Shown here piece by piece: positions 1-32,000 of a DNA stretch of 32,000 nucleotides. Made by a program: the position numbers and the translations under genes. The DNA is from Candidatus Saccharimonadota bacterium (GTDB taxonomy: Bacteria > Patescibacteriota > Gracilibacteria > Absconditabacterales > Absconditicoccaceae), in NCBI GenBank assembly GCA_000503875.1, contig CP006913.1, forward strand, positions 210,001-242,000. Reading direction: 5' to 3'. The notes beneath the pieces are model-generated. The model searched no databases, was not told the DNA's origin, and saw only the letters and a list, made by a program, of their open reading frames with translations. Numbering within the stretch: position 1 is the stretch's first letter; every line of letters begins with the position of its first letter.

Positions 1-768
1 CGTTATCTCATTATGTTGCTTATGCTTTTTACATTTCTTTTCGGGTCAGTAAGTTTTGCTCATCCTGGTAGAACAGCGTCAGATGGATGTCATTATTGTA
101 GAACTAATTGTGATTCTTGGTGAGTGGCTTGGAATCAAAGACATTGTCATTGAGGTTCAACAACGCCTAGCTATACACCTCCGCCTGTTTATCAACCAAC
201 GCCAACTGAGAAATGTCAATCGTCATACTGATCAAACTCCTATTATAATTCTACTTCTAACTCTTGTGATTGTAACTATTGATATGAGCTAAACTCAGCT
301 AAAACCTATTGTGTAATAGAAAAGACTAAAACACCAACAGAGGAATGTAAAGAAACATATTGATCAAACTCCTATTATGATACCACATCTGATGTTTGTA
401 AGTGTGTATCTTGATATGAGCTAAACTCAACCAAAACTTCTTGTGTAATAGAAAAGGAATGTAAAGAAATATATTGATCAAACTCCTATTATGATAGTAC
501 ATCTAATGCTTGTGAGTGTATATATAGATATGAACGAGATTCAGCTAAAAAAGATTGCATTAAATCGAAGATAATTGAAGAAAAAGCTAAGACACCTACT
601 GAAAAGTGTCAAGATAAATATTGATTAAACTCTTATTGATTAGAGAGCACTGATTGATTAGATGATTGTTATTGTAAGAATTGATATCAATGGTCTTTAA
701 ATAATACTAGTTGTGTTCTTAAAAAGAAGAAAACACGATGGAATTATATAAAAGATTTTTTTAATTAA
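1..768 (+). CDS. Secreted YHYH-motif protein with four Cys-rich tandem repeats (5' end at or beyond window edge; TGA=Gly)
   Basis: Frame 1 is open from the window edge to TAA 766-768 if TGA is sense (11 in-frame TGA by hand count). A hydrophobic leader ..MLLMLFTFLFGSVSFA is followed by HPGRTASDGCHYCRTNCDSWGVAWNQRHCHGG, which resembles the YHYH-family motif. Then comes a Pro/Thr linker and four repeats of the form C-x3-YG-x-NSY..C-x-C-x2-GY..C. Confidence 0.7.
199..725 (+). repeat. Four in-frame tandem coding repeats (about 115-140 nt each) encoding a 4-Cys module
   Basis: Repeat units start near 199, 331, 457 and 592. The strings tattgatcaaactcctattat and tgatatgagctaaactca recur. Each unit keeps two TGA codons at the YG and GY positions, except that the second position is AGA in unit 3. 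Confidence 0.8.
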
Positions 769-894
769 ACATTTATAAAACATTACTTACTCGCTGAATA
801 TTATGAACATATGTATATATAGTTGATAAAGATTTGAGAGAATATTTTAAAGGAAAAATCCAGAAGTAAAATTTTAATATATTATAAATGAATA

Positions 895-1242
895 ATGAGT
901 CTAAAACGGAAATTAACCCTGTCTTGATGTTTAACATTATTTAGTACAATAGCATTAAGCGTGTGAGCTACTTATTTCTCCTGAATTGATAAGTATTATC
1001 GACTTTTTATTTTATGAATTGTTTTTTGAACTGTTCAGATCTTGTTAAGTATTTTTCATAAAACAATAGAAGAAGAGTGGTATGAACAAGAAAAAAATAA
1101 TCATGCTGCAGTTAGAAGAAAAGAATGATATATGTCCGAACTAGAAGGAGCTTGCTTATATTGAGCAACAGAAGCAATAAAAAAATGAGATTTAGATGAA
1201 GCAAAAAAACTGAGCGATTTAAAGAATAGCTTTTTAAAATAA
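895..1242 (+). CDS. Hypothetical small membrane protein (115 aa, TGA=Gly)
   Basis: ATG 895 to TAA 1240-1242 with 8 in-frame TGA and no TAA/TAG. There are two hydrophobic segments (LTLFSTIALSVGATYF, LFILGIVFGTVQILLSIF) followed by a charged helical tail. No family recognised. Confidence 0.55.
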
Positions 1243-1270
1243 ATCTTTTATAAATATTATTGAAATTATA

Positions 1271-2320
1271 ATGAAAATAAGATATTTAGAAAAATTTGAA
1301 AAATCTTTTGAAAATATATTTGGTAAAAATATAGAGATTTTGAATAAAATTGAAAAGTTATGAGCAGAATATTTATTGTCTGTATCGAAACTTATAGATA
1401 AGAACAAACAAATATATATGTGTACATTAATTCCATGAACTAGATTGTTTTTTTATAAAAAAGAACATAGTATCATTTTATTAGACATTATTTCTATAGA
1501 CAAGGATAAAAAAATAGATTTTTTAGAAAAGAATGTGGTTAAAGAAACAAAAAGAAAAAAAATAAATAGAATAATAATGTTTATTTTATTTGTTTTGTTA
1601 ATAATAGTTATAATAGAGGGATCAAACCAACTTTCCGAAGTATATAAACAAAATGCAATAATCAAGAATGATTTATGATTAGTAGATTGACAACTTAGCA
1701 ATGAAGAGAAAAATATAATTACCGATAATGGTTTTTTTACATGAAATAATTATTCTAATTATACATGATCTATGTTTATAAGAGATGATAATACATGTGA
1801 TTTATTATATTCATGAGATTATAAAGAACTTATAATACGAGAAAATTTTAATACGCCTTCATTAGAAACATTGAGATCTACAGATTGATATCTTTCATAT
1901 TCTAAAGAATTTGAAATTCCTAAGTGAATAGAAAAAGCTTGGTTATGTATAGAATCAGATTTTAATGAAATAGGAAATTCTAAAAAGAATTATGCAACAA
2001 CATATTTTTTTATTGGTAAAAGAGAGTATGGTTGACATATAAATGTTTCATACAGCGATGAATATAATACTCTTTATGGCGATTGAAGATTTCGACCAAA
2101 GTCTTCGTCTAGACAGCCAAAATGACCAAAAATATATTTTGAGAGTCTTGATAACATAAAAGTTTATAACAGTACTATTTGAAATCATACTTCGTTGTGA
2201 AATGTATATGTAAATCCAATAGAAATGTTGAAAGATGGATGAAAAAAACGTATAGGATGATTTGTTGATAGTATGTATCAATGATGAGTAATTAAAGTTT
2301 TTAAGATATTTTATAAATAA
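1271..2320 (+). CDS. Hypothetical single-pass membrane protein (349 aa, TGA=Gly)
   Basis: ATG 1271 to TAA 2318-2320. I checked it codon by codon and found 18 in-frame TGA and no TAA/TAG across 349 codons of AT-rich DNA. It has one TM helix (INRIIMFILFVLLIIVII) and a C-terminal part of about 230 aa rich in Gly/Tyr/Asn. No family recognised. Confidence 0.65.
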
Positions 2321-2345
2321 TTTTTTATTTTCTAGAATATATCAA

Positions 2346-2573
2346 ATGACTGATTTATGGTTATGAGCTAGTCAAAATTGAAATTTATTACGAACTATTA
2401 TAAAGAGTAATTATGAATCGATTTTAATTATATTCGTAATTATATTTATTTTCTGGTATATAAAAGAAAATATCAAAGCACGGATTCGATGAGAGAAAGC
2501 AAAAGATGTTATTGAATGGTATATGACCAATAAAAAACAATCAGAGATAAATGATAAAGATATTAATTTATAG
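2346..2573 (+). CDS. Hypothetical small membrane protein (75 aa)
   Basis: ATG 2346 to TAG 2571-2573 with 3 in-frame TGA and one TM helix (ILIIFVIIFIFWYI). It is short, so the coding call is tentative. Confidence 0.4.
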
Positions 2574-2661
2574 TCTTTAATTAAAAAAATTCCACCCCAC
2601 TTACCATTGAAATCCCTCAACCAATATTTACAAAAACACTATCTTTTATTTTCTGTTCTCA

Positions 2662-2955
2662 ATGAGCATGGTAGTTACAAAAAACAAGAAGTCTCCAGCA
2701 AAAGCAAAGGCTGCGACTCTCAAAATCGAAGCATCTTGTGATAGTGAACAACTCTCTCAAGCAGTTGGTTCTTGCAAAAAAATGAAGTGTGGTACTCCAA
2801 AATGAAGCTGTATTTATATTATGGGACTTATCGGTGCAGCTATTTATTTCATCGGAAATGCTGTAGGATTTCGAGGCGGGGTAATAGCCTTCCTCAAAGC
2901 TATCGTTTGGCCAGTATTTTTGGTAAAATGATTATTGGCATACATAGCAATGTAA
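2662..2955 (+). CDS. Hypothetical small membrane protein (97 aa)
   Basis: ATG 2662 to TAA 2953-2955 with 2 in-frame TGA. The N-terminus is Lys/Ala-rich. The C-terminus is a hydrophobic hairpin (IYIMGLIGAAIYFIGNAVGF..VIAFLKAIVWPVFLV). A hairpin terminator follows. Confidence 0.5.
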
Positions 2956-2981
2956 TTTTCACTTCACTATATTCTCATACA

Positions 2982-3008
2982 ATCCAGAAGCAATTCTGGA
3001 TTTTTTTG
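2982..3008 (+). terminator. Rho-independent terminator
   Basis: The stem is atccagaa/ttctggat with a gcaa loop, followed by a T-run, immediately after the 2662-2955 CDS. Confidence 0.6.
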
Positions 3009-3076: not shown

Positions 3077-3793
3077 ATGTTCAACATATCATCATTTCTC
3101 TCCGATATCAGATCAACATTGAAATCCCTCTCAGATCCCAAAACGAGAGATTCTTTCCATCGTTTCTTCAAAGAACCAGTCACTGCCTATGGAGTCAAAA
3201 GTGCCCTCGTAGAAAAACTCGCCAAAGAGAAGTGGAAAGAGATCAAAGAGTTAGATAAGAAAACAATTTTCTGATTATGTGAAGAACTATTTAAATCTGA
3301 CTATTGTGAAGAAGCCTTCGTTGCCTGTAACCGAACCTATGCGTTGAGGAAACAGTACCAACCAGAAGATTTTCAGACTTTTTATAATTGGATAGAAAAA
3401 TATATAAATAACCGAGCGAAATGTGATACCTTCTGTAACCATACCATGGGAGCGTTTATCGAGATGTATCCACAATATATTAAAGAAATAAAAAAATGGA
3501 CGAAGTCATCCAATAGATGGGTAAAAAGGGCATCTGCTGTTAGCTTTATTGTACCAGCGAGAAGAGGAATGTTCTTGGCGGAGCTTTTCCAGATCGCTGA
3601 TGATTTATTGCTGGATTTGGACGATATGGTCCAAAAGGGATACGGATGGATGCTCAAGGTAGCCAGCCAAGCTCACCAACAAGAAGTTTTTGAGTATGTC
3701 ATGAAACATAAAGTAGTTATGCCCAGGACAGCCCTGAGATATGCGATAGAAAAAATGGATAAAGAATTGAAGGTCGAAGCGATGAAAAAATAA
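3077..3793 (+). CDS. DNA alkylation repair protein (AlkC/AlkD-like HEAT-repeat family), 238 aa
   Basis: Track ORFs 3077-3274 and 3344-3793 share a frame and are joined through one TGA at 3272-3274. Family-like strings are present: FHRFFKEPVTAYGVK, WVKRASAVSF, KGYGWMLKVAS, RTALRYAIEKM. Confidence 0.7.
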
Positions 3794-3849: not shown

Positions 3850-5703
3850 TTATTTCTTCTTTTGTGATTCCATGAGTTGCTTTAATTCGCTTTCGCTCAT
3901 GTTATTAAGTTTATCTTTGAAATCCTCAAGATTTTTATGACTCTGTAAGGAGTCTCTTCTCTGAACATTCTGATTATATACAGATTGCTCATTTGAAGAC
4001 ATTTGGAGATGCAAGGTCAAATTTTTGAAATACTTAGCAATTACAGAGGCTTGTTTTGAATCAATATACTTGATCTCAACAAGATCACCTTCTTTGGTAA
4101 GCGCTAATTCTGATTGAAGGGTAGAAGTCACCATCACGGAGAAAGAAAATTCATTAAAATACAAATAATACTGCTTTCCTGTGGCGGAGATATCCCATCC
4201 AATTCTCGCTACTTTACCTTGGAAAGATATATCTTGTTGGGTAACTTCTGTAGAAATCTGCCCACCAATATTCATCAATAGTTTTTGGAATTCAATCAGT
4301 GCTTCTTGTGGAGTAGCTCCCAAAGCAACCTTACGATTTTCTGTTTTTACAATAGCAAGGCCTTGATAGGTACCATTTGATCCAATAACAGGAACTAAAG
4401 CAGCTAATGTGCCATACACATTTTCATAAATAATCTGATTGCTTGCATGCCATTTTTTGTATTTTACTTCAGCATTAACCGCATCGATAATATCTTGTTC
4501 TGTGCCACCACCAGAAGTAGTGTAGTATAAGAATTTACCAGTGCGAGCATCACAATACATCAGACCAGCCATTGCTTCGTCATCATTATTATCCGAAGTA
4601 ATGGGAACTACAAATACACATCGACCATCGATTGAATAGTTTATGGTTGGAGTTTCGCCTTCAACAATATTAACATGATACCAATTAGCGTTCCACCATC
4701 CATCTTTGTATTTACCCCAATTATCGATATAATTGTTAACGATCTCAGCGGGGATGATTCTGTCGATCCATGCATATTTAGCATCTGAGTTGGCTTTCTC
4801 GATCGAGACAAATTCGTCTTCGCCAGTTTCTGGGTTGAAAAGGATAACTCCTTCTACTACAAGTCCACCATATCCAATAGTTGGTTTACAAGCGGCAATT
4901 ACCCAGAAAATGTTTCCATTATCATCTTCTTCAAAAGCCCAATCTTCAAATATAAAATTACGATACTTCCGATAAAGTTTTCTCTCAAGATTATCTCCAA
5001 AAAAAGCCTCTGGAGTATATTTCATTTTCTTGTGAGTAACAAGGATCGGTTTTGCATTAGGATCAGTTGCGCTAATCTTTACATAGCCTGGTACTCCATC
5101 AGTACTTGTCCAAACTCTCCAGTTTTTAAAATCAAGAGGAATAAGATAAAAGTAATTGTCTCTGATTTTTTGAAGAGTGGTATATTTGGTAGCCAAAGGA
5201 AATTGACTTCCCAATGTATTTCCATCTTCAGTAATAGATGTTTTAGCTAAATAAATAGCAACTGAATCAGGAACAAGACGAAGGTGAGTAGGATCCAAAG
5301 GTTGGATTTCTTGAGACCAATGTTTTTGATTTTTGGTATCAAATTTGCCAATCAATGATGCATAATCATCAGTATTACCAAACATTGGGGAACTACCTAT
5401 TGCAGTAAAAATTATTACAACAAGAAGCACACCAGGAAACCAAGCAGCATGAGTTATTTCATCTGACATAACTCCGGCTACAAAAGCAGCGACAATCCAC
5501 CAGATACATAAAAGACCTGAGTAGAAACCTAGTAAAGGCCAAGCTGTAGATGGTAACCCAATATAAAGAATCAGCCATCCAAAAAGAGTAAAGAGAATAG
5601 CCATAATAATATAAGCAGCGCCTTTATCTTCTTTCTTTGTATCAGATATAAAGACAGGCAAGCCCCCAACGAGGGCAATCAACAATGCGATTGAAAAGTA
5701 CAT
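3850..5703 (-). CDS. Large membrane protein, 617 aa, four N-terminal TM helices plus a ~500-aa extracytoplasmic domain; family not recognised
   Basis: Intact ORF even under the standard code, with no in-frame TGA despite about 43 Gly by hand count. The N-terminal 110 aa are strongly hydrophobic. The tail is coiled and charged (SESELKQLMESQKKK). Confidence 0.8.
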   Translation of the reverse strand: MYFSIALLIALVGGLPVFISDTKKEDKGAAYIIMAILFTLFGWLILYIGLPSTAWPLLGFYSGLLCIWWIVAAFVAGVMSDEITHAAWFPGVLLVVIIFTAIGSSPMFGNTDDYASLIGKFDTKNQKHWSQEIQPLDPTHLRLVPDSVAIYLAKTSITEDGNTLGSQFPLATKYTTLQKIRDNYFYLIPLDFKNWRVWTSTDGVPGYVKISATDPNAKPILVTHKKMKYTPEAFFGDNLERKLYRKYRNFIFEDWAFEEDDNGNIFWVIAACKPTIGYGGLVVEGVILFNPETGEDEFVSIEKANSDAKYAWIDRIIPAEIVNNYIDNWGKYKDGWWNANWYHVNIVEGETPTINYSIDGRCVFVVPITSDNNDDEAMAGLMYCDARTGKFLYYTTSGGGTEQDIIDAVNAEVKYKKWHASNQIIYENVYGTLAALVPVIGSNGTYQGLAIVKTENRKVALGATPQEALIEFQKLLMNIGGQISTEVTQQDISFQGKVARIGWDISATGKQYYLYFNEFSFSVMVTSTLQSELALTKEGDLVEIKYIDSKQASVIAKYFKNLTLHLQMSSNEQSVYNQNVQRRDSLQSHKNLEDFKDKLNNMSESELKQLMESQKKK

Positions 5704-6146: not shown

Positions 6147-7457
6147 TTAAGAAGAAATAATAGGTATACTAAATTTAACAACAGTTCATTTTCCAGGTTC
6201 ACTTCGGTCTATCCATATTTTTCATCAATGTCTTTCTACAAATTCTTTACACAGCAAGAGTCAAATTCATGTTCAACTTTCGTTGCCTGTTCATTTTCTA
6301 GACTCCGTTTTGTCTATTTTAAATAAATTTTCTTTTTGCTCTAAATTCATTCCTATTCCATTATCTGCGATAGAAACTAAGAAAGCGTTTTCTGTATTTT
6401 TAAATGCGACACGAATTTCTCATCATCTTCCACTGCCTCAGGTAAATTTAATAGCATTGGAAACTAGATTTCTTATGACGGTAGCTACCATCTGTTTATC
6501 AGCATATATAACGGTATCATCCGGTATATTGTTTTTGATAAAAATATTTTTTATAGCGGCTACTTCATGGAGTAACTTTATTTGTTCTAGTGTTTCAGTT
6601 TTGAAATCGAAGTTTTCTGGTTTAAATTTTACTGAAGATTGTGCTCTTGCTCGTTCCAATAAGGATATTAAGAGATTGTAAGATTTATTTGCTGAGTCGT
6701 TTATAATTCAAATATTTTCTTCAATTTCTTCCATGGTAAATTCTTTAAGATTGTTTTTTAATATATCAAGAAATCCCAAAATAGCACTAAAAGGTGATTT
6801 TAAATCATGAGCAATGATAGAGAAAAACTTGTCTTTGGCTATATTAGCCTCTTGGAGTTTTTTTTCCAATTCCATATGTTTGGAAATATCAAAAGCCATT
6901 CCTATAATTTCCTTTACACGTCCTGTTTCATCAAAACTAGGCGTGAAATTAACATCGAAATGAATAGATCATACCGTCAAAACGCCGTGTCGTTCTTTAC
7001 CTTCTGCTGCTAATTGAATTCATTGCATAATAACTTCATTATCTCCATAATGATTCCAAACATAATCACCTACGACTTGGTCTTTTTCAAGCCCCAATGT
7101 TTTCAATCCTTTTCCTTTGGAAAATGTAAATTTCATTGTAGAAGGATTTATCCCAAAAAAGACAGCATTCCCTTTTTCGATTAAGGTTTCAAATCTTCTG
7201 CTGTTTCTTTTATATTTAAGGGTATTCATTTCTATTTCAACTTTCTCAAAGGCATGATACTTAGTTATGAAACTCATAATATCATCATCTTTGATTGTGG
7301 CGAGAATAAGGTCTTCTATATGTAAACAACTGAGAATAGCTTCTTTAGTCGGTCCCATTATATTTTTTTCATGCTCCATCAAAAAATCTCTCAGGGTGTT
7401 TTTGTTGCAGCCATCAATAAAAATTCTGAAATTGTCTTTGTTGGTATTCAATGACAT
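6147..7457 (-). CDS. Soluble PAS-domain sensor histidine kinase, 436 aa (TGA=Gly)
   Basis: Three track ORFs (7020-7457, 6708-6899, 6438-6659) plus the unlisted tail share one frame and are joined only by TGA. H-box is FFSIIAHDLKSPF and N-box is VIRNLVSNAIKFT. G1 is IADNGIGM. G2 is [21 protein letters not shown], with many of its Gly encoded by TGA. Stop is TAA at 6147-6149. No TM segment. Confidence 0.9.
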
Positions 7458-7531
7458 TGAATAGGGTTTTCCCCCAAAATAAAGTCAGAGAGATGTAGTA
7501 ATATTGTATTCTATATACAGAACAGACAAGC

Positions 7532-7576
7532 AATGTCAACACAATCTATTGACATTTATTATAAAATAAATATTGT
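7532..7576 (+). promoter_or_regulatory. Candidate promoter (TTGACA-16-TATTGT) overlapped by a perfect 8-bp inverted repeat
   Basis: The repeat is aatgtcaa (7532-7539) and ttgacatt (7549-7556), separated by 9 nt. The right arm contains TTGACA at 7549-7554, and TATTGT is at 7571-7576. The element sits in the divergent region between the histidine kinase and the 7608 gene. Confidence 0.35.
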
Positions 7577-7607
7577 CTATTTTTAAAAATATGAACATAT
7601 ACTTCTT

Positions 7608-8609: not shown

Positions 8610-11573
8610 TTATTTCTGACTCCAAACAACTTTTTTGTCTCCATTGATTTCTTTGAATTCAGATGCTTTTACTCTAATCTTATCTCAGATATTATAGTAT
8701 TTTTTCCAGTCAACTCCATCAGGAGCGACGATGAAATTCTTGTGAAGTAATCCTTCAACTCCTTTGACTGTGACAAACATTCCATAGTTATAACTTAGTT
8801 TTACATATCCATCATACGATTCACCTAGTTTGATATGAGAAATATCAAAGGCTCATTCACCGGCTTGTGGGGCAGGGGAGCTGATTACTGAAGTTGGTTT
8901 CGCTACTATATTGTTTTCTGGGGCTTTTGGTTCTTGTTGAGCAAGGAAGGCTTCCAATTTAGTTGTATTTGGACAAAATTTAAGCGAAGCTTTAAATTTC
9001 TCGACATTTCCAGCAAGTCCAAGCATAGTATCAAATTGTTGCAAGACATGTTCTTTACTTCCAATCCAGATAGCCAGAGGAATAGTATTTTCTATCGTCA
9101 TTGTTTGATGTTGATACATATCCACGGAGATATCAAGTTTTTTTCCTCCATCCAATGGTACATGAGTTCCTGCCTTGTATTTGAGATTTGCTTGATCATC
9201 CAATCATTTTGGTTTAGTCCACCAAATAGTTTTGTGGCTATTACTATCGGTATCAAACAAGATAGCATCTGGCTCTACGCCGTCGATAGCATACTCCGTG
9301 AACATATGAAGATGTTGTTGAACAAACATATCCTGAAGATTTTCAGCCTCTTCTGATGAAATTCCAAGTGATTCTAATTTTGCTTTTTCTGCTACTTTTT
9401 CTTGAACAGAGAAAGTCTTGTTACTCCATGCTTGCATAAGTTTTTCTAGTTGTCCTCTGGACATAGCGTATCTTTGTCTTGATTGTTTTCTTACTTTGTC
9501 GATAGTTTCTAGTGATCCTTCTGCTTTGATTGGCGGTAATGTCTTCATACTAAACGGATCAGAAGAAATTCCATCAATCATAAGTCTCGTATAGGCGGTA
9601 TATTTCGGCAAAGAAATCAAATCATTGACCTCAGCCATATTTTTAAATTGACTCGTCATTTGCGATGCATCATCGGATCAAATTGTCATACATACGGTTG
9701 TTCCTACGTTACCAAAGATAGCATCTTTGATTTCAGGCATCAACTGAGAAATATATTGGTTAGCAACGATCAACGCAAGTTTATATTTTCTGGCTTCCGA
9801 AAGGATAGTAGTAAATGATTCTGATGCGAAATTTTGAAACTCATCAATATAGAGATAAAATTCTCTTCTCAAATGAGCAGGAATATCGGCTCTTGACATG
9901 GCATCAATTTGAAATTTTGTCACCAAAAGCGAACCAATCATATTTGCATTATCTTCTCCGATTCTCCCTTTAGACAAATTTACCAAGATAATTTTTCCTT
10001 CATCCATTGCCTTTCTCAAGTTCAATTTGGTTCTTGGTTGTCCAAAGATATTTCTCACGAGTTTTGAAGACAAAAATTGTCCAACTTTATTGGTAATAGG
10101 ACCTGCTGCTTCTTCTCTTTGCTTATCATTTCGTTTATTAAATTCATTATTCCAGAACTTCAATACCACGCTATCTTTTACACAAGAAACGACTTCTTCA
10201 CGGAAATTTTTGTCGGTTAGCATTCTCAAAATATGCATCAAGGTAGCATTTGGATAATCAACAAGTGACAATACGATATTTCTCAAAATATATTCAAGTC
10301 TTGGTCATCGGCTATTTCCAAACAATTTTTTAAACGTTGAAACAACTCCAGATGCCACGAGATTTCTCTCTTCTTCGGTATCAGCTTGCAACAAGTTGAA
10401 TCCAATAGGAAAATCCGAATCCGCTACATCAAACAAAATCACGTCATTGATTCTATGGCTAGGAATATATTCAAGCACGGTATCAACCAATTCTCCATGC
10501 GGATCGAGCAAACAAAGCCCATTTCCCGCTTGCATATCACTGGCAATCAAGTTGGAAATCAAGGTAGATTTTCCGGTACCTGTCTTTCCCATAATATACA
10601 TATGTCTAAATTTGTCTTCTTTTCTAATTCCAAAGGTGATATTATCTCCTCTATAATCAGTTGTTCCTAGAATAGTAAGATCTTTGTCCGCATTTGGTGT
10701 ATTGTAGCTTGTAGGGAGATTGGTTGGGTAAGGAAGCTTTCTATACAAGGTATATTCCAATCCTTTCGTGAAATTTGCTACGGTAGGAAGATGAAAGAAA
10801 TTTACGGATTGATCGTAGGTCATAGCAATTTTTTTTGCTTTTTTTATAACTTTGATTTTTCCTCATTCGAAAAAGGTCGCAAAAGCAGATTTAATGTTGG
10901 CTTTGGTTGTTTCCAAAAGATATTTATCTTTGCTTTTTATGTGATATCACATAGTCATAAACAAGTCTGGCTTTTTTTCTTTTTTCTCGTCTTTCCCATC
11001 TTCGCCTTCCTTAGATTTCGGTGTTCGGAATCGTTTAATCACGTCATTAATAACTGCCAAGAAATTCTTTTTTACTTTAAATGTATAAGTAAATACGATA
11101 TCTAAACTAGAATCTGCATCTATAGTATTGTAAAGAGAAAGAATCGTAGTCATTGGATCCATGTAGGTCCCATCTCTTACGAAATCATCTTTGGAAAGTA
11201 CAGGAGCAGAATCTTTTCCTATAATATATTCTTGATGTGCATACAATTGAGGCGTTTCCACTTCCAAAAGATCAGAAGTAGGAAAACTTGCATAAAATGC
11301 ACTTTGAAAAAATTGCTTGAAATCTTTTGGAAGTCAAACAAAAAATTTAATAGAGCGACTGTTCCCTCTAATTAAGAAAGTAAGCTGTTTTTTTTTGAGA
11401 CTAATAAGATTCTTACTTACAGTTTCCCAGTGGTTTATTCCACGATCGTTATCTTTGAATGGTTTTATCTGAAAAAAGACAGTGTTCCCCAAAGTTGGAG
11501 ATTTTGGCGTGGAGGAGATTCAACCACTTACCCCAGCAAGCAAATTGCCGAGTTTTTGAGCAGATTCTAGCAT
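8610..11573 (-). CDS. VirD4/TraD-like (type IV coupling protein / HerA-FtsK superfamily) P-loop ATPase with C-terminal S1 RNA-binding-type domain, 987 aa (TGA=Gly)
   Basis: Five track ORFs (10947-11267, 10305-10823, 9678-10286, 9204-9659, 8853-9203) plus both unlisted ends share one frame. I verified the junctions codon by codon and found 9 TGA and no TAA/TAG. Walker A is MGKTGTGKSTL, followed by LLDPHGEL. Walker B-like motif is FYLYIDEFQNF, followed by LALIVANQYISQL. The C-terminal 80 aa (8613-8852), LGESYDGYVKLSYNYGMFVTVKGVEGLLHKN..IGDKIRVKASEF, fit the S1/OB consensus. Confidence 0.85.
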
Positions 11574-12114: not shown

Positions 12115-13626
12115 ATGTCAGAAACAAACATCTTCCATGCCAAAACAAAATTAATCGACATCCAGGATGGAGAAGAACTTATCGTTCTTATCAATGAGCA
12201 AAATGCTTGGGAACACGGTATTAGTCCTTTGGATAAGGTAGTACTCAGATACAAAGATCAAGAACTTGTACTCAATGCAAATCTTACCAATAAACTCGTA
12301 AAACCAAATGAAATAGGTCTCTACAAAGACGTATCTCAAAAATATAAAATACCAGGTGATGCAACCGTAAGTGTGCATTTTACCCAAACCAATGGGAAAG
12401 CTATTGAGGCACTCAAAAAAGCAATCAATGGAAAAAAATTAAACTACAAAGAAACCTATTCGATTATGAAAGATATCGCAGATAATCGTTTTACCGATAC
12501 CCTGATTACCTATTATTCAGCAGTAGGATTTTTCAAAAAAGCAAGTGACCATGAACTCTATGAAATGGCAAAAGCTATGGCAGAGACAGGTGAAATGTTG
12601 CATTTTGATGGAGTAGTTGCTGATAAGCATTGTATGGGAGGAGTTCCAGGAAATGAGACAACGATGATTATGATTCCATTGCTTGCATCTCTTGGTATCA
12701 AAATGCCAAAAACTTTTTCCAAAGCCATCACTTCGCCAGCAGCGACAGGGGAATGTGTAAATGTCCTTATGGATATCTCTTTCTCCAAAAAAGAAATCGA
12801 AAATTTAGTGAAGACTCAAAATTCATGTTTGGTACGAGGTGGAGGGCTTAGTCTTGCGCCAGCAGACGAAAAACTCATCAAAGTTGCATATCCACTTTCT
12901 ATGCAATCATACTCAAGAACAGTTGTTTCTATTATGGCCAAGAAATATGCAATGGGAATTAACCATTCATTGATTGATATTCCTATGGGACCAACAGCCA
13001 AAGTACCTGATATGAAAACAGCAAAACGACTCAAGAAAAAATATGAATATGTAGGTAAAAAACTTGGTATGAAAGTTCATGTAGAAATCACAGATGCTAT
13101 GCAACCAATTGGTGCTGGTATCGGAGCTACGCTTCAAGTAAGAGAAGTGCTTAGAGTCTTACAACAACACGAACTTAGACCTATGGATCTCCAAAACAAA
13201 GCAGTTTTTCTTGCTTCCAAAATTATCGAACTCGTAGGGATGGCCAAAGGTAAAAAAGCGTATGAAATGGCATATCAACAACTTAAATCAGGTAAAGCAT
13301 GGAAAAAAATGCAAGAAATTATCAAAGCACAAAGAGGAAAAAACCCAAATATCAAATCAGAAGATCTCAAACTCGCAAAATTCAAGAAGGAAGTGAAAGC
13401 CGAAAAAGCAGGAACGGTAAAAGTTATTGATATGAAACTTATCAATCTGACAACAAGAGCATTAGGAGCCCCTATTGACGATCAAGGAGGTCTCTATCTT
13501 TGCAAGAAGCTTGGAGACAAAGTCAAGAAAAACGACATCATCTATGTTATGTACGCCAATCAAGAAAGCAAAATCGACATGGCACTAGAAAACCTAAAAG
13601 GGAAAAAAATGTATGAAATAAAGTAA
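12115..13626 (+). CDS. AMP phosphorylase (archaeal-type thymidine-phosphorylase family with N-terminal extension), 503 aa
   Basis: Intact ORF. It has an N-terminal extension of about 85 aa ahead of the glycosyltransferase core. DKHCMGGVPGN (the GGVPGN variant, not the GGVGDK I recall from thymidine phosphorylase) and SKAITSPAATGE are present. The ~500-aa length matches AMP phosphorylases rather than ~435-aa thymidine phosphorylases. Confidence 0.8.
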   Translation: MSETNIFHAKTKLIDIQDGEELIVLINEQNAWEHGISPLDKVVLRYKDQELVLNANLTNKLVKPNEIGLYKDVSQKYKIPGDATVSVHFTQTNGKAIEALKKAINGKKLNYKETYSIMKDIADNRFTDTLITYYSAVGFFKKASDHELYEMAKAMAETGEMLHFDGVVADKHCMGGVPGNETTMIMIPLLASLGIKMPKTFSKAITSPAATGECVNVLMDISFSKKEIENLVKTQNSCLVRGGGLSLAPADEKLIKVAYPLSMQSYSRTVVSIMAKKYAMGINHSLIDIPMGPTAKVPDMKTAKRLKKKYEYVGKKLGMKVHVEITDAMQPIGAGIGATLQVREVLRVLQQHELRPMDLQNKAVFLASKIIELVGMAKGKKAYEMAYQQLKSGKAWKKMQEIIKAQRGKNPNIKSEDLKLAKFKKEVKAEKAGTVKVIDMKLINLTTRALGAPIDDQGGLYLCKKLGDKVKKNDIIYVMYANQESKIDMALENLKGKKMYEIK

Positions 13627-13647: not shown

Positions 13648-14640
13648 ATGCCTCAAATTATCACCACCTTATGACCAGCAATTACTTCACCAGAAATCTT
13701 AAAGGACCTCTATACCCAATGAGTCCGTATCTTAAGAGCCAATTTTACGCATGAAACAAGCGAATCCATAGTAGTTAAACTAGCGATCATTCATGAGGTA
13801 GAACAAGAAATTGGTGGTAAATTTTCTTTGATGATGGATATCGAAGGACCAAGTATCAGAACAGGAAAACTTGATCGACCAACACCCTATAAAAAAGGAG
13901 AAAAATTTAAATTAATGGTCGTGGAAAAAATATTGGAAAACAATGATTTGTTTTGTGATTTTCCAGGTATTATCGATAATGTGAAAGTAGGGGATATCGT
14001 AAGAATTGAATCAGGATTGTTTGATACCATCGTTCGTGAAATAGGATCGGAATATATATTATTGGAAGCCCTCAATGATTTTACCATGACATCCAAAAGA
14101 CATATTAATCTCCCAGGTCTTCATATTGATATGCCAACTATTACGGACAAAGACAAACAAGATATTGCATATGCTCTAGAAGCGAAATTTGATTATATAG
14201 CTATTAGCTTTTGTAGAAGCGCTGCGGATATCCAAGAAGTCAGAAATTTAACAAACAATCAGATCAAACTTATCGCTAAGATAGAAAACCAAGAAGGACT
14301 CGACCATCTCGATGAAATTATCGATGCAAGTGATATGGTGATGGTAGCAAGGGGAGATTTATGAACAGAATTACCTCTAGAAAAGCTTCCAGAAGTCCAG
14401 ATGGATATCGTAAAAAAATGTAAATTCAAACATACGCCCGTCATTATAGCCACCCAGATGCTCAGCTCCATGGTGACCAGTCCTGCGCCTACTAGAGCAG
14501 AAGTATCCGACATATTCCTCGCAACCCTCGAAGGCGCAGACTATTTGATGCTTTCTGAAGAAACCACGATTGGACTTCATCCTGTGGAAGCCGTAAAGAT
14601 GATGAACAAAGTAATCGCCGAAGTCCAAAATGGCCGATAA
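13648..14640 (+). CDS. pyk: Pyruvate kinase, short form (330 aa, A and B domains only; TGA=Gly)
   Basis: ATG 13648; track ORFs 13828-14364 and 14401-14640 are in the same frame. The TGA codons complete TL-G-PA, TQ-G-VRILRANF and MVARGDL-G-TELP. The protein ends shortly after LSEETTIGLHPVEAVKMM, where canonical enzymes continue into a ~120-aa C domain. Confidence 0.9.
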
Positions 14641-14973: not shown

Positions 14974-15249
14974 TTAGTGATGATGATGACCACCGCAGCA
15001 TGCTCCATCTTTTTTGTTCTCACAGTCATCGTCTCCACCGCAACATCCCTCTTCTTTATGGGCGTGATGATGTCCATGTTGTGCTTCAGTTTGTTTTTGC
15101 ATATAAGCTAATGAATCAAAAAACCCACCAACCATTGCTTCCATGATTTGATCGTTAGAAAGTTTTTGGGTTGGGTAAATAATGTGTAATTCTGCTAATA
15201 ATCTATTAAATTCAGCAAGTGTTTTGTCTGATACTTCAATATGCGCCAT
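14974..15249 (-). CDS. Small protein with His/Cys-rich metal-binding-type tail, 91 aa
   Basis: Intact ORF starting 17 nt downstream of the pheS stop on the same strand. The C-terminal 35 aa are HGHHHAHKEEGCCGGDDDCENKKDGACCGGHHHH. The N-terminal ~55 aa show a strand-helix-helix pattern (AHIEVS / DKTLAEFNRLLAEL / SNDQIMEAMVGGF). Confidence 0.65.
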   Translation of the reverse strand: MAHIEVSDKTLAEFNRLLAELHIIYPTQKLSNDQIMEAMVGGFFDSLAYMQKQTEAQHGHHHAHKEEGCCGGDDDCENKKDGACCGGHHHH

Positions 15250-16836: not shown

Positions 16837-17502
16837 ATGCATATCGACAATCTCATTGAAATGAGAAATCTTACCTGGGGATATCCAGAAAGTGCAATAT
16901 TATTATTTAATCACTATAATTTTTCTCTCAAAAAGGGGGAGTTTTGTGTGATTATGGGAAAATCAGGAACAGGGAAATCCACCTTGGCAAGAATTCTTAC
17001 GGGAGAAAAATCAGTAGGAGAAAAGATGGTGTACCATAAACATGAAGATATATCCAAATATTCAGATGAAGAAATGCAAACATATAGAAGAAAAATGGGA
17101 ATTATATTTCAGGATTATAAATTGATTGAATATATGACTGTTAAAGAGAATATTATCTATCCATTAGTGTTATACGGAGTAGGTGAGTCTATTATAGATG
17201 CTAAATACCAGAAACTCCAACAGAAATACAATATTAGTCATTTAGAAGATTTGCCGGTAAAATTCTTGAGTGCTTGAGAAAAACAAAAAGTAGCGCTTGC
17301 GAGAGCATTGATCCACGATCCAGAATTTATTATTGCAGATGAACCAACAGGAAATCTTGATTGGGAACATACCCAAACTATATGAGATCTTTTGATCCAA
17401 TCAAATCAAAATGGAAACACCATCTTATTGATTACCCATGATATCCATTTAGTAAATTATCTCAAAGAAAAACATCCAATCAGATTGGAAATGCTTGGTT
17501 AG
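16837..17502 (+). CDS. ftsE: FtsE-like ABC transporter ATP-binding protein, 221 aa (TGA=Gly)
   Basis: Walker A is GKSGTGKST. The Q-loop region is [19 protein letters not shown]. The signature LSA-[TGA][11 protein letters not shown] is followed by Walker [12 protein letters not shown] and the H-loop LLITHD. Stop is TAG at 17500-17502. The next gene is not an FtsX-like permease. Confidence 0.8.
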
Positions 17503-18386: not shown

Positions 18387-18890
18387 ATGGCTATTACCAA
18401 AGACAAGAAAAAAGAGCTTTTGAAGCAGTATGTTGAAAGCCTTAAAAACGCAGGAAGCACGTACGTTATTAAACAAAACGCGATACCTGTAGACGTTTCA
18501 ACAAAAGTAAGAAAAGAAATGAAATTGGCCGATGCTAAATTTAATGTAGTGAGAAAGAGAATATTTCTCAAAGCAGTTGAAGAAGCTGGTTTAGAAAAGA
18601 TTGATTTGGCATTATTGCAATGAGCTACAGTAGCTATATTTGCAAAAGAAGAAGACTTTGCTCCTCTCAAAATTATCAGCAAGTTTGGTAAAGGATTTGA
18701 GAAAGCTTGAGAAAAATCATCATTTGATTTTCTTGGTGGATGGAGTGAAAAACAATGGAAAGATGGTGCATATGTAGCTGAACTAGCAAACATCCCATCA
18801 AAAGAAGAACTTCTTTCCAAATTTATGTACTTGTTGAAGTATCCAGTGCAATCATTTGCATGCGTACTTGATCAGGTTGCAAAAAAATAA
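18387..18890 (+). CDS. rplJ: 50S ribosomal protein L10, 167 aa (TGA=Gly)
   Basis: Track ORF 18387-18623 continues in frame through 2 TGA to TAA at 18888-18890. L10-like features are present (LLQ-G-ATVAIFAKE, LANIPSKEELLSKF), and the gene sits directly upstream of rplL. Confidence 0.9.
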
Positions 18891-18958
18891 GCATAGCTTC
18901 TGCTTGCTTAATATCTATGTATTAGATTATTCTTTATTTATATTATTATACTATAAGA

Positions 18959-19339
18959 ATGGAATTGACAACAAACGCACAAAAAGTATTGGATCTTATA
19001 TCAGAAATGAATCCAGTAGAATTAAATGGACTTGTAAAAGCTATTGAAGAAAAATTTGGAGTTAGCGCTGCTGCTATGGTAGTTGCTGGTGGAGCTGCTA
19101 CTGCTGATGCTGGAGCTGCTGCTGCTTCTGATTCTGTTAATGTTGAATTGACAGATGCAGGACAACAAAAAATTGCTGTTATTAAAGTAGTAAAAGAAGC
19201 TTTGAATTTAGGATTAAAAGAAGCTAAAGACTTAGTTGAAAAAGCGCCAGTTATTGTAAAAGAAAATGTTAAACAAGATGAAGCTGATGCATTGAAAGCT
19301 AAATTAGAAGAAGCTGGAGCTACTGTTTCTTTTAAATAG
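18959..19339 (+). CDS. rplL: 50S ribosomal protein L7/L12, 126 aa
   Basis: Intact ORF with an Ala-rich hinge ([21 protein letters not shown]) and a C-terminal domain [43 protein letters not shown]. Confidence 0.97.
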
Positions 19340-19388
19340 TTTTTCCTATTTGCTAAGTATTTCTTTATTTATTACGCAATTTTAGAGT

Positions 19389-20051
19389 ATGAGCATAACT
19401 ACAAAAGAAGTCGTTGATGCACAACTTCACATTGGTACATTAAAAAGTGAAGCACATCCTAAAACGTCAAAGTTTTGGGCTGATGTTGTTAATGGAGTGG
19501 TCGTTGTGAGTCCAGATGCAATAGTAAGCCAATTAGAAGCTGCTAAAGAAAAAATTCAAAAAGCAAAACAACAAGGAAAAGAAGTACTTGTAGTTTCAGA
19601 AAAGAAAATGTATGCAGAAGAATTGGAAGCATTGGGAACTAAATATGGAGTTAGTTATTTGAATTACAAAGTTCCTGGTGGATTTTTGACAAATTTTGAT
19701 ACATTGAAAAAAAGAATAGAATCAATGAATTCTATGGAACGCTTTTTGGAAACAGATACATATAATTCTTTAACAAAGAAAGAACAACTTGTATACAAAA
19801 GAAAGCTTGCTAGAGTATTCAAAATTTACAAATGAGTTAAAAATCTATCAAAAAAACCTGATTTGGTTGTAGTTTTGGATGGTTTAATGATGGAAAATTT
19901 TGTAAATGAAGTGGAAAAGCAAAAGGAAGTAGAGTCTATTCTCATTTGTGGAACAAATTTTCCAAGATGGTGGAAAGAAGATAGTTTGATTATTGCAAAT
20001 ATCAATAGTCATAAAAGTGTAGATTATATACTAACAAATATCTTATCTTAA
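19389..20051 (+). CDS. rpsB: 30S ribosomal protein S2 (divergent), 220 aa (TGA=Gly)
   Basis: Track ORFs 19389-19835 and 19863-20051 are in frame and joined by one TGA. S2-like features are HIGT..HPK, VLVVSEKK, VPGGFLTNF and PDLVVVLD. tsf is found downstream. Confidence 0.8.
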
Positions 20052-20061
20052 TCATTTGCTT

Positions 20062-20574
20062 ATGGATCAACAAAATCAATTAGAAATACCGGCAATACCT
20101 GTTGGTATTCAATCTTCACAAGAACAATACGTCCCAAGCAGTGTCGAAAAGAAAAAAGCACTGATGATGTATTTTCTTTTTGGTATAATTATCGTTATCT
20201 CCAATAAGAAGGTCAATGATTTTGAATTTTTCCATGTAAAACAAGCGATGTGACGATGGATGGTGTTTATTTTAAGTATATTAGTCTCTACTATTATCTT
20301 ATTTATTCCTCTGATTAAAGTAGTAGGAATACTTTGGTTATTGATAGTAATGGGGATATTTATTTTCCTTGCAAAACAAGCATGGGACGGTAAATATTAT
20401 CAAGATGTAACTAAATATAGTTTAGGTATATTTCCTTCATTATGAACATGGCTATTTTGATTGTTTGGTATTAGTTTCAATGATATGGAGCTTAATCAAT
20501 CAATACAAAATCAACCGCCTCAAAGCCAACCGTCTCAACCAATACAAGACCAAAATAATCAAAATAAATCTTAA
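20062..20574 (+). CDS. DUF4870-like small membrane protein with Gln/Pro-rich tail, 170 aa (TGA=Gly)
   Basis: Track ORFs 20056-20253 and 20260-20445 are in frame; 3 TGA; TAA at 20572-20574. It has TM helices and the FFHVKQA motif I recall from that family. The tail is NQSIQNQPPQSQPSQPIQDQNNQNKS. It is inserted between rpsB and tsf. Confidence 0.55.
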
Positions 20575-20604
20575 TTGTTAATTTTTAATTATTAACTATT
20601 ATGT

Positions 20605-21402
20605 ATGGCAATAGATATGACACTTCTCAAAAAATTGAGAGATGCTACCTTTGCTCCATTAGGAGACTGTAAACAAGCTCTTGAAGAAGCAAATGGAGAT
20701 TTCGATCAAGCTCAAGAAATTTTGAGAAAAAAAGGAATATTAAAAGCTGGTAAAAAAGCAGAAAGAGAAACTAACGAAGGTAATGTGAAACTTATCCAAA
20801 AAGATGGATGGTTAGCGGGGATTAAACTTCTTTGTGAAACAGATTTCGTAGCAAAAAACGAAACATTTGCAGAATTGATTGATCTTTTGTTAGAAAAAAT
20901 CATTGCTCATAAATCTGAAGTAACAAGTTTGGAAACAATAGATGCTGGATTATTAGAATCATTACAAACAATAATTGCAGAGTTTATTGGAAAAATTTGA
21001 GAAAACGTTCAAATTGGAGCTGTTATCTTAAACAATAAAACTGCATATGTATATAATCATCCAGGAAATAAAGTTGCTTCTATTATCTATTACGAAGGTA
21101 CAGATAATGGAATAGCTAAAGAACTTGCGTTACAAGTTGCTGCAATGAATCCAACATATCTTTCTTTTGATGATATTTCTACTCAAGAAAAAGAAGAATT
21201 GTTGACACAATATCGTGAAGAAATGGCTACAAGTGGAAAACCAGCAAATATTATTGACCAAATAATAGAAGGTAAATTAAGAAAAACATTGGGAGAATCT
21301 GTTTTGCTAGAACAAGAATACATTAGAGATGGAGGAAAAAAGGTAAAAGATCTTATCTCAGGTGATTTTGTAGTAAAATGATTCGTTAGGTTATCTATTT
21401 AG
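20605..21402 (+). CDS. tsf: Elongation factor Ts, 265 aa (TGA=Gly)
   Basis: Track ORFs 20605-21000 and 21145-21381 are in frame. The N-terminal UBA-like region is LKKLRDATFAPLGDCKQALEEANGDFDQAQEILRKKG. CETDFVAKNE and LALQVAAMNP are also present. Stop is TAG at 21400-21402. Confidence 0.92.
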
Positions 21403-21434
21403 ATTACATATTTTTATTTCTAGTATTATGTACC

Positions 21435-22001
21435 ATGAAAAATTATGAACTTGTCTTGTTGTTGAATCCATCTGTTCAAGAAAAAGAACAAAAGGAATTT
21501 CTTGCAAGTTTGGAAAAAGAAATACAAAAGAATATCGTTGAAAAAGACGATATAGGATTGTTGACTTTGGCTCATGACTTGTGAGAAAAGAAATGAAACA
21601 ACAAATTTTATTTTGTGTCATATTATCTCAATGCAGATACAGATATTTCACAAAAAATAAATCAATTTCTTTTGTATAACAAAATAGTATACAGATATTC
21701 TTTGTATTCTATGAACAAAACAGAAACACCTCTTTCTTTTCAACAAACACAACAAGAAATGCAAAAAGTTATTGATGGACGAGTAGAAAAGAAGAAAGGA
21801 AACAAAATGACGTTTTTTACTAAACCAGAAAATGAAAAATACGTTTCTTGGAAATCATTACCTATGCTCAAAAAATATATGACGAGGTTTGGTGATATTA
21901 AACCAAGAAAATATACAGGAAACCCAGTAGGTGTTCAAAAAAACTTGAGAAAAGTTATTATAAGAACAAGAGAAATGGGGCTTCTTGAATACGTAAAATA
22001 A
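21435..22001 (+). CDS. rpsF-rpsR: Ribosomal protein S6 - S18 in-frame fusion, 188 aa (TGA=Gly)
   Basis: ATG 21435. The first ~95 residues are S6-like (MKNYELVLLLNPSV.., DIGLLTLAHDL-G-EKK-G-NNKFYFVSYYLNAD). The last ~65 residues are S18-like (YVSWKSLPMLKKYMTRFGDIKPRKYTGNPVGVQKNLRKVIIRTREMGLLEYV). I read it codon by codon; only two TGA codons and no TAA/TAG occur between the two parts. Confidence 0.8.
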
Positions 22002-22045
22002 GCTCATAGTTTATAGTAAATAACTTTATATTTTTATATGTAATT

Positions 22046-22204
22046 ATGGCGAGTAAATTAAGAAGGGTTAGAAAATATTCCCGAAGAAAAAGACTCACTA
22101 AACACGGGTTTAGAGAAAGACTTCAAACAAAAAATGGTAAAAAGTTGTTAGCTAGAAGAAGAGCTAAAGGAAGAAAAAGCTTAACAGTTCAAAGAAAGAA
22201 ATAA
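22046..22204 (+). CDS. rpmH: 50S ribosomal protein L34, 52 aa
   Basis: [48 protein letters not shown] matches the L34 consensus (HGFR.R..T..G..vL.RRRaKGRk.Ltv). It is absent from the ORF track because it is shorter than the cutoff. Confidence 0.9.
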
Positions 22205-22300: not shown

Positions 22301-26020
<3,720 letters not shown>

Positions 26021-26108: not shown

Positions 26109-29921
<3,813 letters not shown>

Positions 29922-29991
29922 AATCTCTTGAAATACACTCGTAAATAAATAAAAGTAAAAACTGTCAATTTTTAATTTGTTTTTGAATAGT

Positions 29992-30264
29992 ATGGCACAC
30001 AAAAAAGCTGGTTGATCATCCGAAAACCTAAGAGACTCGAATCCAAAATATAGAGGAGTCAAAGTATTTGGAGGACAAACCATATCAGCAGGAAACATCA
30101 TAATTAGACAAAAAGGATCTAAATATGAGTGTGGAAAAAACACTTATGCTGGAAAGGATTTTTCTATTCATGCAGCCGTAGATGGGACTGTCTCTTTTTC
30201 TAAGAAAAATTTTGAAAGATTCGATGGAAGAAGATATCTCAAAACAGTTGTAAATGTAGAGTAA
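29992..30264 (+). CDS. rpmA: 50S ribosomal protein L27, 90 aa (TGA=Gly)
   Basis: MAHKKAG-[TGA 30013-30015]-SSENLRDSNPKYRGVKVFGGQTISAGNIIIRQKGSKY matches the L27 N-terminal consensus MAHKKAGGS. Stop is TAA at 30262-30264. Confidence 0.93.
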
Positions 30265-30291
30265 TTTTAATTTTATTAGTAATTGTAAAAG

Positions 30292-30522
30292 ATGACTATC
30301 GGTCCAAAGAAAAAAATATCCAAAACAGCTAGTCGTACAAGACACGCAACGTGGGAAACGATCAATCTTAAAAGAATGACAGCAACCTACCAAGTGGGAA
30401 AATGTTCAAACTGTGGAGCAAGAAAACTCGCTCACAGAGTTTGTCCTGTATGTGGATATTACAAAGGGAAACAAGTAATTACTATCAAAGCAAAAGGTGG
30501 AGAAAAAGTAATTGATGCCTAA
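30292..30522 (+). CDS. rpmF: 50S ribosomal protein L32, 76 aa
   Basis: [17 protein letters not shown] followed by the zinc-ribbon [25 protein letters not shown] matches the L32 pattern. Confidence 0.9.
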
Positions 30523-30581
30523 ATTGTTTAAGAAAGTACATATATCAACAATTAATTCTTAACTACTAATAATCACCTTGT

Positions 30582-31121
30582 ATGAATATAAGAAAAAGAA
30601 TTAATGCAAGAAAAGTGGCGCTGTCATATATTTATCAGCACTGCTTTTTTTGAAATCTCTTACATCACAAGTCCGCAATTGATGAATCTTTATTCATCGA
30701 TAATATTTTCCAAACACAAACAGAAAAGTTTGCAAAAGAAAAGGATGATTTTCTAGAAAAAATTGAAATATATCATCAATTCCCATTTGAAGAGCATGTG
30801 GAAGAATTTGTGGAAACATTCTTTGATGAGTGGACAAAGGAAGATATCGATTTTGATTATTTACTCAAGGTTGTTCCAGCAACATTTACCTTAGAGTCTG
30901 AACTTAGAGAAGAAGTAAATAAATATGCACAAACATTTTCTTATGACGACATGGATGTTATTGATAGAGGATTGTTCTTGTTGGGATACGCAGAATGGAA
31001 AGTATTACAAACCCCAAAAGAAGTAATTATCAATGAACTCATAGAATTAGCAAAAAGATATTCAGATGAAGGAGCTCCAAGGCTTCTCAACGGTATTATG
31101 CATAAAATTATAATGAACTAA
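30582..31121 (+). CDS. nusB: Transcription antitermination factor NusB, 179 aa (TGA=Gly)
   Basis: ATG 30582; one TGA; in frame with track ORF 30798-31121. NusB-like strings are ARKVALSYIYQ, DVIDRGLFLLGYAEW, PKEVIINELIELAKRYSDEGAPRLLNGIMHKI. Confidence 0.8.
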
Positions 31122-31147
31122 AGCTTACCGCAAGGTAAGTTTTTTTG
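31122..31147 (+). terminator. Rho-independent terminator
   Basis: The stem is gcttacc/ggtaag(t) with a gcaa loop, followed by a 7-T run, immediately after the nusB stop. Confidence 0.7.
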
Positions 31148-31205
31148 TTTGCAATAATCTTGCTTTTTACTATACTCAAAGACACATTTTTAGTGAAGAA
31201 AGCGA

Positions 31206-32000
31206 ATGATGATAATAGGAAATCAAGAAGCAAGAAATCGTCTTCAAACTTACTTAGAGCAGCATGCTGTTGCAAGCTCTGGGCAAGTGAGTTTTTTCCT
31301 GTTATATGGGCCTGCCAATATTGGCAAAGCTGCTATCGCACTCGAGCTTGCCCAGTCATATCTATGAATATATGCTCAATGATGACTTTTACATATCAAA
31401 GATATGTCAGCAATTCTCGGTAAAAAACATTCAATAAAAATCGCAGAAAAATCTGAAACAGAGGAATATAAAACATTATATGAAGAGCACCACTACCAAG
31501 ATTTATGAGTCAGAGAAATAAATAATTGGCTACAGCAATCAGCCTTCGGTTGATCAAAAATTCTTCTTATAGAAAATATTGAAAGAATGACTTCTGAAGC
31601 AACCAATGCTTTTCTCAAAGCTTGTGAAGAACCACTTCCAAATAGAGTTATTATCGCTACGACTTCCAATAAATCAAAAATATTGGAAACTATCCTTTCA
31701 AGAGCTATTTCGATTCCATTTTCTCCCTTATCAGAACAAGAAATGGAACAATATATCAAAGAAAAAAATATCCAGATACATTCTCCTGAGGTCAAGGAAT
31801 TGCTTATTATGATGGCAATGGGTAAGCCAGGAACATTAGAAAATTTCGCAGAGCAACTTGCCAAGGACGAAGAGCGACAAAACGATATTCAAAAACTGAT
31901 AAAAATACTTCCTTATCCATGAAAAATCGTAGAAAAATACAAAATCTTTGAAAAATTTAAAGAACAAGGAATTCTGGAACAGTTCTTAGACGGTTGGATT
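31206..32000 (+). CDS. holB: DNA polymerase III delta-prime subunit (clamp-loader AAA+), 3' partial (TGA=Gly)
   Basis: ATG 31206 in frame 0, with 6 in-frame TGA. Diagnostic strings are FFLLYGPANIGKAAIALELA, KILLIENIERMTSEATNAFLKACEEPLPN and ATTSNKSKILETILSRAISIPFSPL (SRC-like motif). The gene runs off the window end. Confidence 0.8.

Follow-up and report, generated by a model that had tools for sequence, protein, structure and literature searches.

The window analysed here is a stretch of 32,000 nucleotides with a guanine–cytosine (GC) content of 32.3%. It carries rpoB and rpoC together with genes of recognised Pfam families: an AlkD-like protein, a histidine kinase, a HerA/TraG-like ATPase, a homologue of AMP/thymidine phosphorylases, pyruvate kinase, PheS and an FtsE-like ABC ATPase, along with the translation-related L10, L7/L12, S2, EF-Ts, an S6–S18 fusion, L27, L32 and NusB, and HolB. 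In-frame TGA codons are found 122 times in 23 of its 33 genes, and the subject of this text is the genetic code in which these genes are written. The window is very probably a housekeeping region of a member of the Absconditabacterales (SR1) whose code reads UGA as glycine and CGA as tryptophan, with UAA and UAG as the only terminators. The Pfam scan was run with TGA masked as X, and the domains of the families listed span the TGAs end to end; the Rpb2 and Rpb1 domains of RpoB and RpoC are taken from precomputed gene calls.

An initial annotation, made from the DNA alone, had proposed that UGA encodes glycine throughout (translation table 25) and that the genes look shattered under the standard code. 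We built greedy, non-overlapping gene sets over the full window under alternative sets of stop codons. With TAA and TAG as the only stops, 32 genes (median 193 amino acids, nine of at least 300) cover 91% of the window, against 44 genes (median 104 amino acids, four of at least 300) and 61% when TGA is added, as in translation table 11. Freeing TAG or TAA as sense instead of TGA did not regain the long genes in these sets, and the length of open reading frames (ORFs) and the coding density rise only with TGA as sense, as expected from the proposal. Two minus-strand ORFs of the greedy set, g10 and g13, were apparently spurious and were replaced by plus-strand ORFs called in the ENA record, whose gene calls agree with the ORFs of g02 and g03. 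With these two replacements and the addition of rpmH, the final set comprises 33 genes (Table 1). Not one of them is interrupted by TAA, TAG or a frameshift, and TGA is the only codon that breaks them. The 32 complete gene ends fall on TAA (27) or TAG (5) and never on TGA, and once TGA is read through the proteins extend to the C-termini of their homologues.

Table 1. Genes of the window, with their coordinates, products and content of recoded codons
Gene	Position	Strand	Product and match	TGA and CGA content
g01	1..768	+	5'-partial Cys-rich repeat protein, no Pfam match	TGA 11 vs GGN 4
g02-g04	895..2573	+	three orphan genes, GC 0.23-0.28	TGA in 29/39 Gly codons
g06	3077..3793	+	AlkD-like DNA alkylation repair protein; PF08713, E=2.6e-58	1 TGA, 2 CGA
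g07	3850..5703	-	617-aa membrane protein, no Pfam match	TGA 0 vs 43 Gly codons; 1 CGA (aa361)
g09	6147..7598	-	histidine kinase; Pfam HisKA + HATPase_c	15 TGA
g12	8610..11573	-	987-aa HerA/TraG-like ATPase; Pfam DUF87, TrwB, TraG-D_C	9 TGA, 4 CGA
g14	12115..13626	+	AMP/thymidine phosphorylase homologue	TGA 0 vs 34 Gly codons; CGA aa241 on Trp
g15	13648..14640	+	pyruvate kinase, barrel domain only; Pfam PK, E=2.8e-87	3 TGA
small protein	14974..15249	-	91 aa, no Pfam match	
g18	15267..16286	-	PheS	2 TGA
g19	16837..17502	+	FtsE-like ABC ATPase	one TGA, in signature
rplJ, rplL, rpsB, g24 (membrane protein), tsf, fused rpsF-rpsR, rpmH	18387..22204	+	Pfam	10 TGA, 3 CGA
rpoB	22301..26020	+	1239 aa	16 TGA
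rpoC	26109..29921	+	1270 aa	9 TGA, 1 CGA
rpmA (L27), rpmF (L32), nusB, holB (3'-partial)	29992..32000	+	Pfam	8 TGA, 1 CGA

The TGA-free gene g14 was matched exactly on three records, from NCBI, ENA and Logan. The NCBI record is GCA_003543185.1, where the window occupies positions 91985-123984 of contig DPJE01000002.1 on the reverse strand; the ENA record is contig k127_941873 of ERZ936476 (264 kb), from the sediment metagenome PRJNA167727; and the Logan assembly derives from another run. These three independent assemblies show no mismatch to the window, and since they agree at all of its bases the TGAs are not sequencing errors. Under table 11, the genes called for GCA_003543185.1 come out in pieces, pyruvate kinase in two, EF-Ts in two and RpoB in at least eight, which is the shattering described in the initial annotation. 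The two proteins checked against SR1 bacterium RAAC1_SR1_1, those of g12 and g07, are identical to its proteins outside the recoded codons; the genome of this bacterium is CP006913 (PMC8080830).

Both relatives and references came from the species genomes of GTDB, scanned with RpoB. The 19 relatives lie at 64-80% RpoB identity, many of them labelled SR1 or Absconditabacterales, and in all of them rpoB and rpoC are intact only with TGA as sense, whereas about 60 other Patescibacteria, at around 45% RpoB identity, have both genes intact under the standard code. By these RpoB relatives and by the identity of its proteins with those of RAAC1_SR1_1, the window belongs to the Absconditabacteria/Gracilibacteria, in agreement with the clade first proposed for it.

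The columns of RpoB and RpoC were scored against 61 RpoB and 52 RpoC sequences from standard-code Patescibacteria. Among the 25 TGAs of the two genes, 17 stand on columns with a glycine majority (10 of the 16 in RpoB and seven of the nine in RpoC), 15 on columns with at least 80% glycine and 12 on columns of invariant glycine, eight of these being RpoB columns with glycine in 61/61; none of the 25 stands on a tryptophan column. The log-likelihood of the residue encoded by TGA in these columns is -37 for glycine and -137 for the next best residue. The codons of the 19 relatives that face the TGAs of the window (n=584) are mainly GGA (208), TGA (140), GGT (109), GGG (24) and GGC (17), so that GGN or TGA make up 85% of the total, and TGG is never among them. 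An avoidance of conserved sites by TGA within proteins was considered and rejected: in RpoB and RpoC the columns with at least 80% glycine hold 15 of 25 TGAs and 75 of 117 GGAs, the same rate.

Alignments with proteins of known structure lead to the same residue. In pyruvate kinase, glycine is opposite TGA in all three cases, within the motifs TIGPA, SGMNV and ARGDLGIE of the PDB homologue, and in PheS in both, within LELGGAGM and GFAFGLGVERLA of the Thermus thermophilus enzyme. The single TGA of L27 falls on glycine where MAHKKAG-TGA-S aligns with MATKKAGGS, and one TGA of the ABC ATPase g19 on the second glycine of the LSGG signature. The histidine kinase g09, aligned with HK853 of Thermotoga maritima, has TGAs opposite the glycines of GTGLG (three), HGG (two) and GKG (one). 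The nine places singled out in the initial annotation all proved to be TGA, in frame with the peptides quoted for them: DSGAR-TGA-S at 28410 in RpoC; QQPL-TGA-GK at 25592, NSL-TGA-VISRMN at 25283 and a further TGA at 25166 in RpoB; MAHKKAG-TGA-S at 30013 in L27; ARGDL-TGA-TE at 14362 in pyruvate kinase; GFAFGM-TGA at 15354 in PheS (minus strand); LSA-TGA-EKQ at 17275 in the ABC ATPase; and the G2 box of the kinase at 6261-6275 (minus strand), which reads TGA ACA TGA ATT TGA. Columns, structural alignments and the codons of relatives all place glycine, and never tryptophan, opposite TGA, and on these correspondences UGA is a glycine codon and UAA and UAG are the only terminators. As a side observation, the signature of g19 (17266-17283, plus strand) reads LSAGE, its G coming from TGA, where the canonical form is LSGGQ/E.

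The rest of table 25, in which all other codons keep their standard meaning, did not hold, for CGA behaves as tryptophan. The window contains 30 CGA and three CGG codons next to 79 TGG. The sole CGA of rpoB and rpoC, codon 737 of rpoC, occupies a column with at least 80% tryptophan and faces TGG in 15 of 17 relatives. In g14, the CGA at codon 241 lies in CLV-CGA-GGG, which aligns with CLVWGGA of the AMP phosphorylase of Thermococcus kodakarensis (PDB 4GA5, E=1.6e-90), and the CGA at codon 305 faces TGG in one relative. The two CGAs of g06, at codons 86 and 113, correspond to W in 81 and 87, respectively, of 90 more distant homologues; by eye, codon 113 matches the tryptophan of SWWDSVD in AlkD, although the alignment printed by HMMER leaves the two unpaired. 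Even in the arginine-rich L34 the only CGA, at codon 13, faces TGG (nine) or CGA (eight) in relatives, and the CGA at codon 65 of g24 faces only CGA, TGG or CGG. In g12, the columns of relatives at CGA codons 422 and 481 contain solely R or W, and that at codon 183 almost solely so. The 120 best hits of g12 all come from SR1/Gracilibacteria relatives translated under mixed codes, and its R/W and G/W bimodality is therefore indirect evidence rather than a standard-code reference; to judge from these sequences, the R/W columns are the signature of mixed mistranslation.

Taken together, the codons that face the CGAs of the window in relatives (n=40) include TGG 20 times, CGA eight times and CGG four times, and never AGA or CGT. 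Conversely, TGG of the window faces CGA 33 times and CGG 21 times, and its AGA faces AGA, AGG, AAA, AAG and CGT. Over the window and its 19 relatives, CGA and CGG occupy none of 90 conserved arginine columns of RpoB and RpoC, and one or the other occupies conserved tryptophan columns in six of these genomes. For CGG, two relatives (L004 and L005) each have it on three tryptophan columns, while the three CGG codons of the window all sit on uninformative columns, and a tryptophan meaning of CGG rests for this reason on the relatives. By these correspondences CGA behaves as a tryptophan codon in the window, and CGG likewise in close relatives, which leaves AGA/AGG and CGU/CGC for arginine. On what the sequence offers, then, the code departs from the standard one at two codons at least, and the basis for this in the present analysis is a set of codon-to-residue correspondences. 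On another aspect of arginine usage, the window has AAA (lysine) at 18 of the 90 RpoB/RpoC columns where standard-code Patescibacteria conserve arginine, a tendency shared by its relatives, and this may reflect an AT-driven replacement of arginine by lysine.

A few points weigh against such a code. The CGG codons of the window are silent, as said; several CGA codons sit in orphan genes; and the CGA at codon 361 of g07 occupies an arginine column. The window and its reachable flanks contain neither a tRNA nor a release-factor gene: a search with ARAGORN yielded no tRNA, whether within the window, in the 6-8.5 kb flanking it on either side or in the loci of the 19 relatives. Support for this organism is also at the level of sequence.

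The explanation that comes closest is plain table 25, the reading of the initial annotation, in which UGA is glycine and everything else is standard, with CGA and CGG as arginine. All the evidence on UGA would fit it equally, the CGA of g07 is in its favour, and so is the NCBI protein of RAAC1_SR1_1 that corresponds to g12 (P148_SR1C00001G0221), which has glycine where the DNA reads TGA and arginine at all four CGAs. Yet each informative CGA of a native gene is either on a tryptophan column or interchanging with TGG, CGA and CGG are missing from all 90 conserved arginine columns in 20 genomes, and Codetta infers CGA as tryptophan for GCA_003543185.1, which makes plain table 25 improbable. With its 30 CGA and three CGG codons, the window would keep as many as 33 errors after annotation under table 25, up to roughly 30% of its tryptophans being mistranslated.

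A mycoplasma-like code with UGA as tryptophan (table 4), effectively assumed by the ENA gene calls, has far less in its favour. The lengths of ORFs alone do not separate it from table 25, and the ENA-derived protein of g06 (P0121) indeed has W at TGA. The tabulation of residues decides against it, leaving it a negligible chance: with no tryptophan column among the 25 in RpoB and RpoC, glycine is ahead by about 100 log-likelihood units, no TGG of a relative stands opposite a TGA, and TGAs occupy the invariant glycine motifs GTGLG, ARGDLG, GFAFGMG and KKAGGS. The standard code combined with pseudogene decay, assembly error, selenocysteine or readthrough would explain why genes look fragmented under table 11, but it is just as negligible, given that TGA is the sole interruption, without frameshifts or internal TAA/TAG, that three independent assemblies agree at all bases, that the same pattern recurs in 19 relatives, that the affected genes are essential (rpoB, rpoC, ribosomal proteins) and that the 122 TGAs in 23 genes are on Gly, not Cys, columns. 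The rejection of both tryptophan and decay in the initial annotation is thereby borne out.

The reassignment of UGA to glycine together with CGA to tryptophan has its place among codes already described. NCBI genetic code 25, the SR1/Gracilibacteria code attributed to Campbell et al. 2013 and Rinke et al. 2013 in the citations of PMC8629427, shares with the window UGA as glycine, TAA and TAG as the only stops and a low-GC genome of the Patescibacteria, or candidate phyla radiation (CPR), but CGA and CGG remain arginine there, while CGA behaves as tryptophan here. Genetic code 4 of Mycoplasma and Spiroplasma also has UGA as sense in AT-rich reduced genomes, with the difference that UGA is tryptophan there and glycine in the window. 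In Absconditabacteria, Shulgina & Eddy (2021, eLife) reported CGA and CGG reassigned to tryptophan, besides UGA to glycine (PMC8629427). Both the reassignment and the clade are those of the window, and so is the assembly: the source data of that paper list GCA_003543185.1 with UGA as Gly, CGA as Trp, CGG as '?' and a GC content of 0.31, the question mark being matched here by three uninformative CGG codons. Both reassignments were thus already published, and our result is a confirmation, not a discovery. CGA usage is similarly given in PMC8629427 as about 25 per 10,000 codons, against 31 per 10,000 in the window. The tRNA counts provided there for the same assembly are (ACG) 0, (GCG) 1, (UCG) 1, (CCG) 1 and (CCA) 1, and in the method described the presence of release factor 2 serves to flag lineages without recoding. 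In BD1-5/Gracilibacteria, a sister clade of a different order with the same reassignment of UGA (Hanke et al. 2014, PMC4032931), proteomics supported glycine by 97 peptides unique to the glycine translation versus three for tryptophan.

Following this literature, UGA would be decoded by a tRNA-Gly with anticodon UCA, charged by glycyl-tRNA synthetase, and release factor 2 would have been lost. The tRNAs with anticodons UCG and CCG would bear identity elements for tryptophan, and tRNA(ACG) would be missing. The likely driver would be the low GC content (32%), AT pressure having made UGA and the CGR codons rare before their reassignment, as in codon capture. After reassignment, changes from GGA to UGA and from UGG to CGA would build up at rates differing from gene to gene.

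The use of TGA is indeed uneven. TGA accounts for 19% of the glycine codons overall, and this share varies strongly among genes (chi-square 147, p=1.6e-18), from 74% (40/54) in the AT-rich orphans g01-g04 (GC 0.23-0.32) through 41% in the kinase g09, 19% in RpoB and 10% in RpoC to none in g07 and g14. Each of g02, g03 and g04 is significantly rich in TGA by a binomial test, and the repeats of g01, with the motifs Y-TGA-SNSYY and TGA-YELNS, have TGA at a constant position. The richness of g01-g04 might stem either from selection relaxed under AT pressure or from a separate origin of these genes.

At the other extreme, the closest homologues of g07 (64-69% identity) lie on contigs of standard-code Patescibacteria. 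The contigs of the three closest, which share 66-68% identity with g07, show no in-frame TGA, and on two of them a gene ends in TGA. The 73 aligned homologues of g07 carry essentially no signature of an alternative code, and the homologue search returned no SR1 homologue, no match being labelled SR1. One of the contigs of the three closest homologues (L089) encodes an L27 and a pyruvate kinase that are only about 50% identical to those of the window. The column of the CGA at codon 361 has R in 46 of the 73 homologues, for which the three closest use AGG or AGA. On the evidence of this one gene, g07 seems to have been acquired fairly recently from a Patescibacterium with the standard code, retaining a CGA that meant arginine in the code of the donor; in its present host this codon would be read as tryptophan, or ambiguously. 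By contrast, g14, equally free of TGA, uses CGA at a tryptophan column and is for that reason not a recent import like g07.

The gene-to-gene unevenness of TGA and the one likely import are the only modestly new elements of this work, and neither is met with in the portions of PMC8629427 at hand. They are relevant to the question of whether a change of code cuts a lineage off from horizontal transfer. We suggest tentatively, and with the balance slightly against it, that the content of recoded codons might record the time at which a gene crossed a genetic-code boundary. If this were true generally, a code change would be a leaky barrier, acting on gene transfer in one direction, and acquisitions could be dated by their content of TGA and CGA.

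The practical consequence is one of annotation quality. The same DNA is public in three conflicting translations, none of them fully right, and artificial G/W and R/W mixtures therefore arise in the homologue columns of SR1 families. A correct translation requires UGA as glycine, CGA as tryptophan and probably CGG as tryptophan.

The locus offers further observations apart from its code. At the Rfam gathering thresholds no match was obtained in the window, for example to a ribosomal-protein leader 5' of rplJ, and the window with its flanks (L084-L086) forms about 46 kb of contiguous sequence without a tRNA gene. A single ORF of 188 amino acids (21435-22001, plus strand) encodes S6 joined to S18, and no ssb gene separates the two ribosomal proteins. 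Of the SR1 relatives, 14 have the full-length fusion, two others (L015 and L017) encode S6 and S18 in separate ORFs, and in L018 only a separate S18 ORF was seen.

The protein of g14 is a homologue of the archaeal type of AMP phosphorylase. AMP phosphorylase is the first enzyme of a nucleoside-salvage route described in CPR bacteria. The neighbouring pyruvate kinase g15 has only 330 amino acids and lacks the usual C-terminal domain, and a similarly short enzyme of 265 amino acids is encoded on the standard-code CPR contig L089. Finally, the small protein encoded between g15 and PheS ends in a tail rich in histidine and cysteine, HGHHHAH...CCGGDDDC...CCGGHHHH, the composition of which suggests that it may bind metal.

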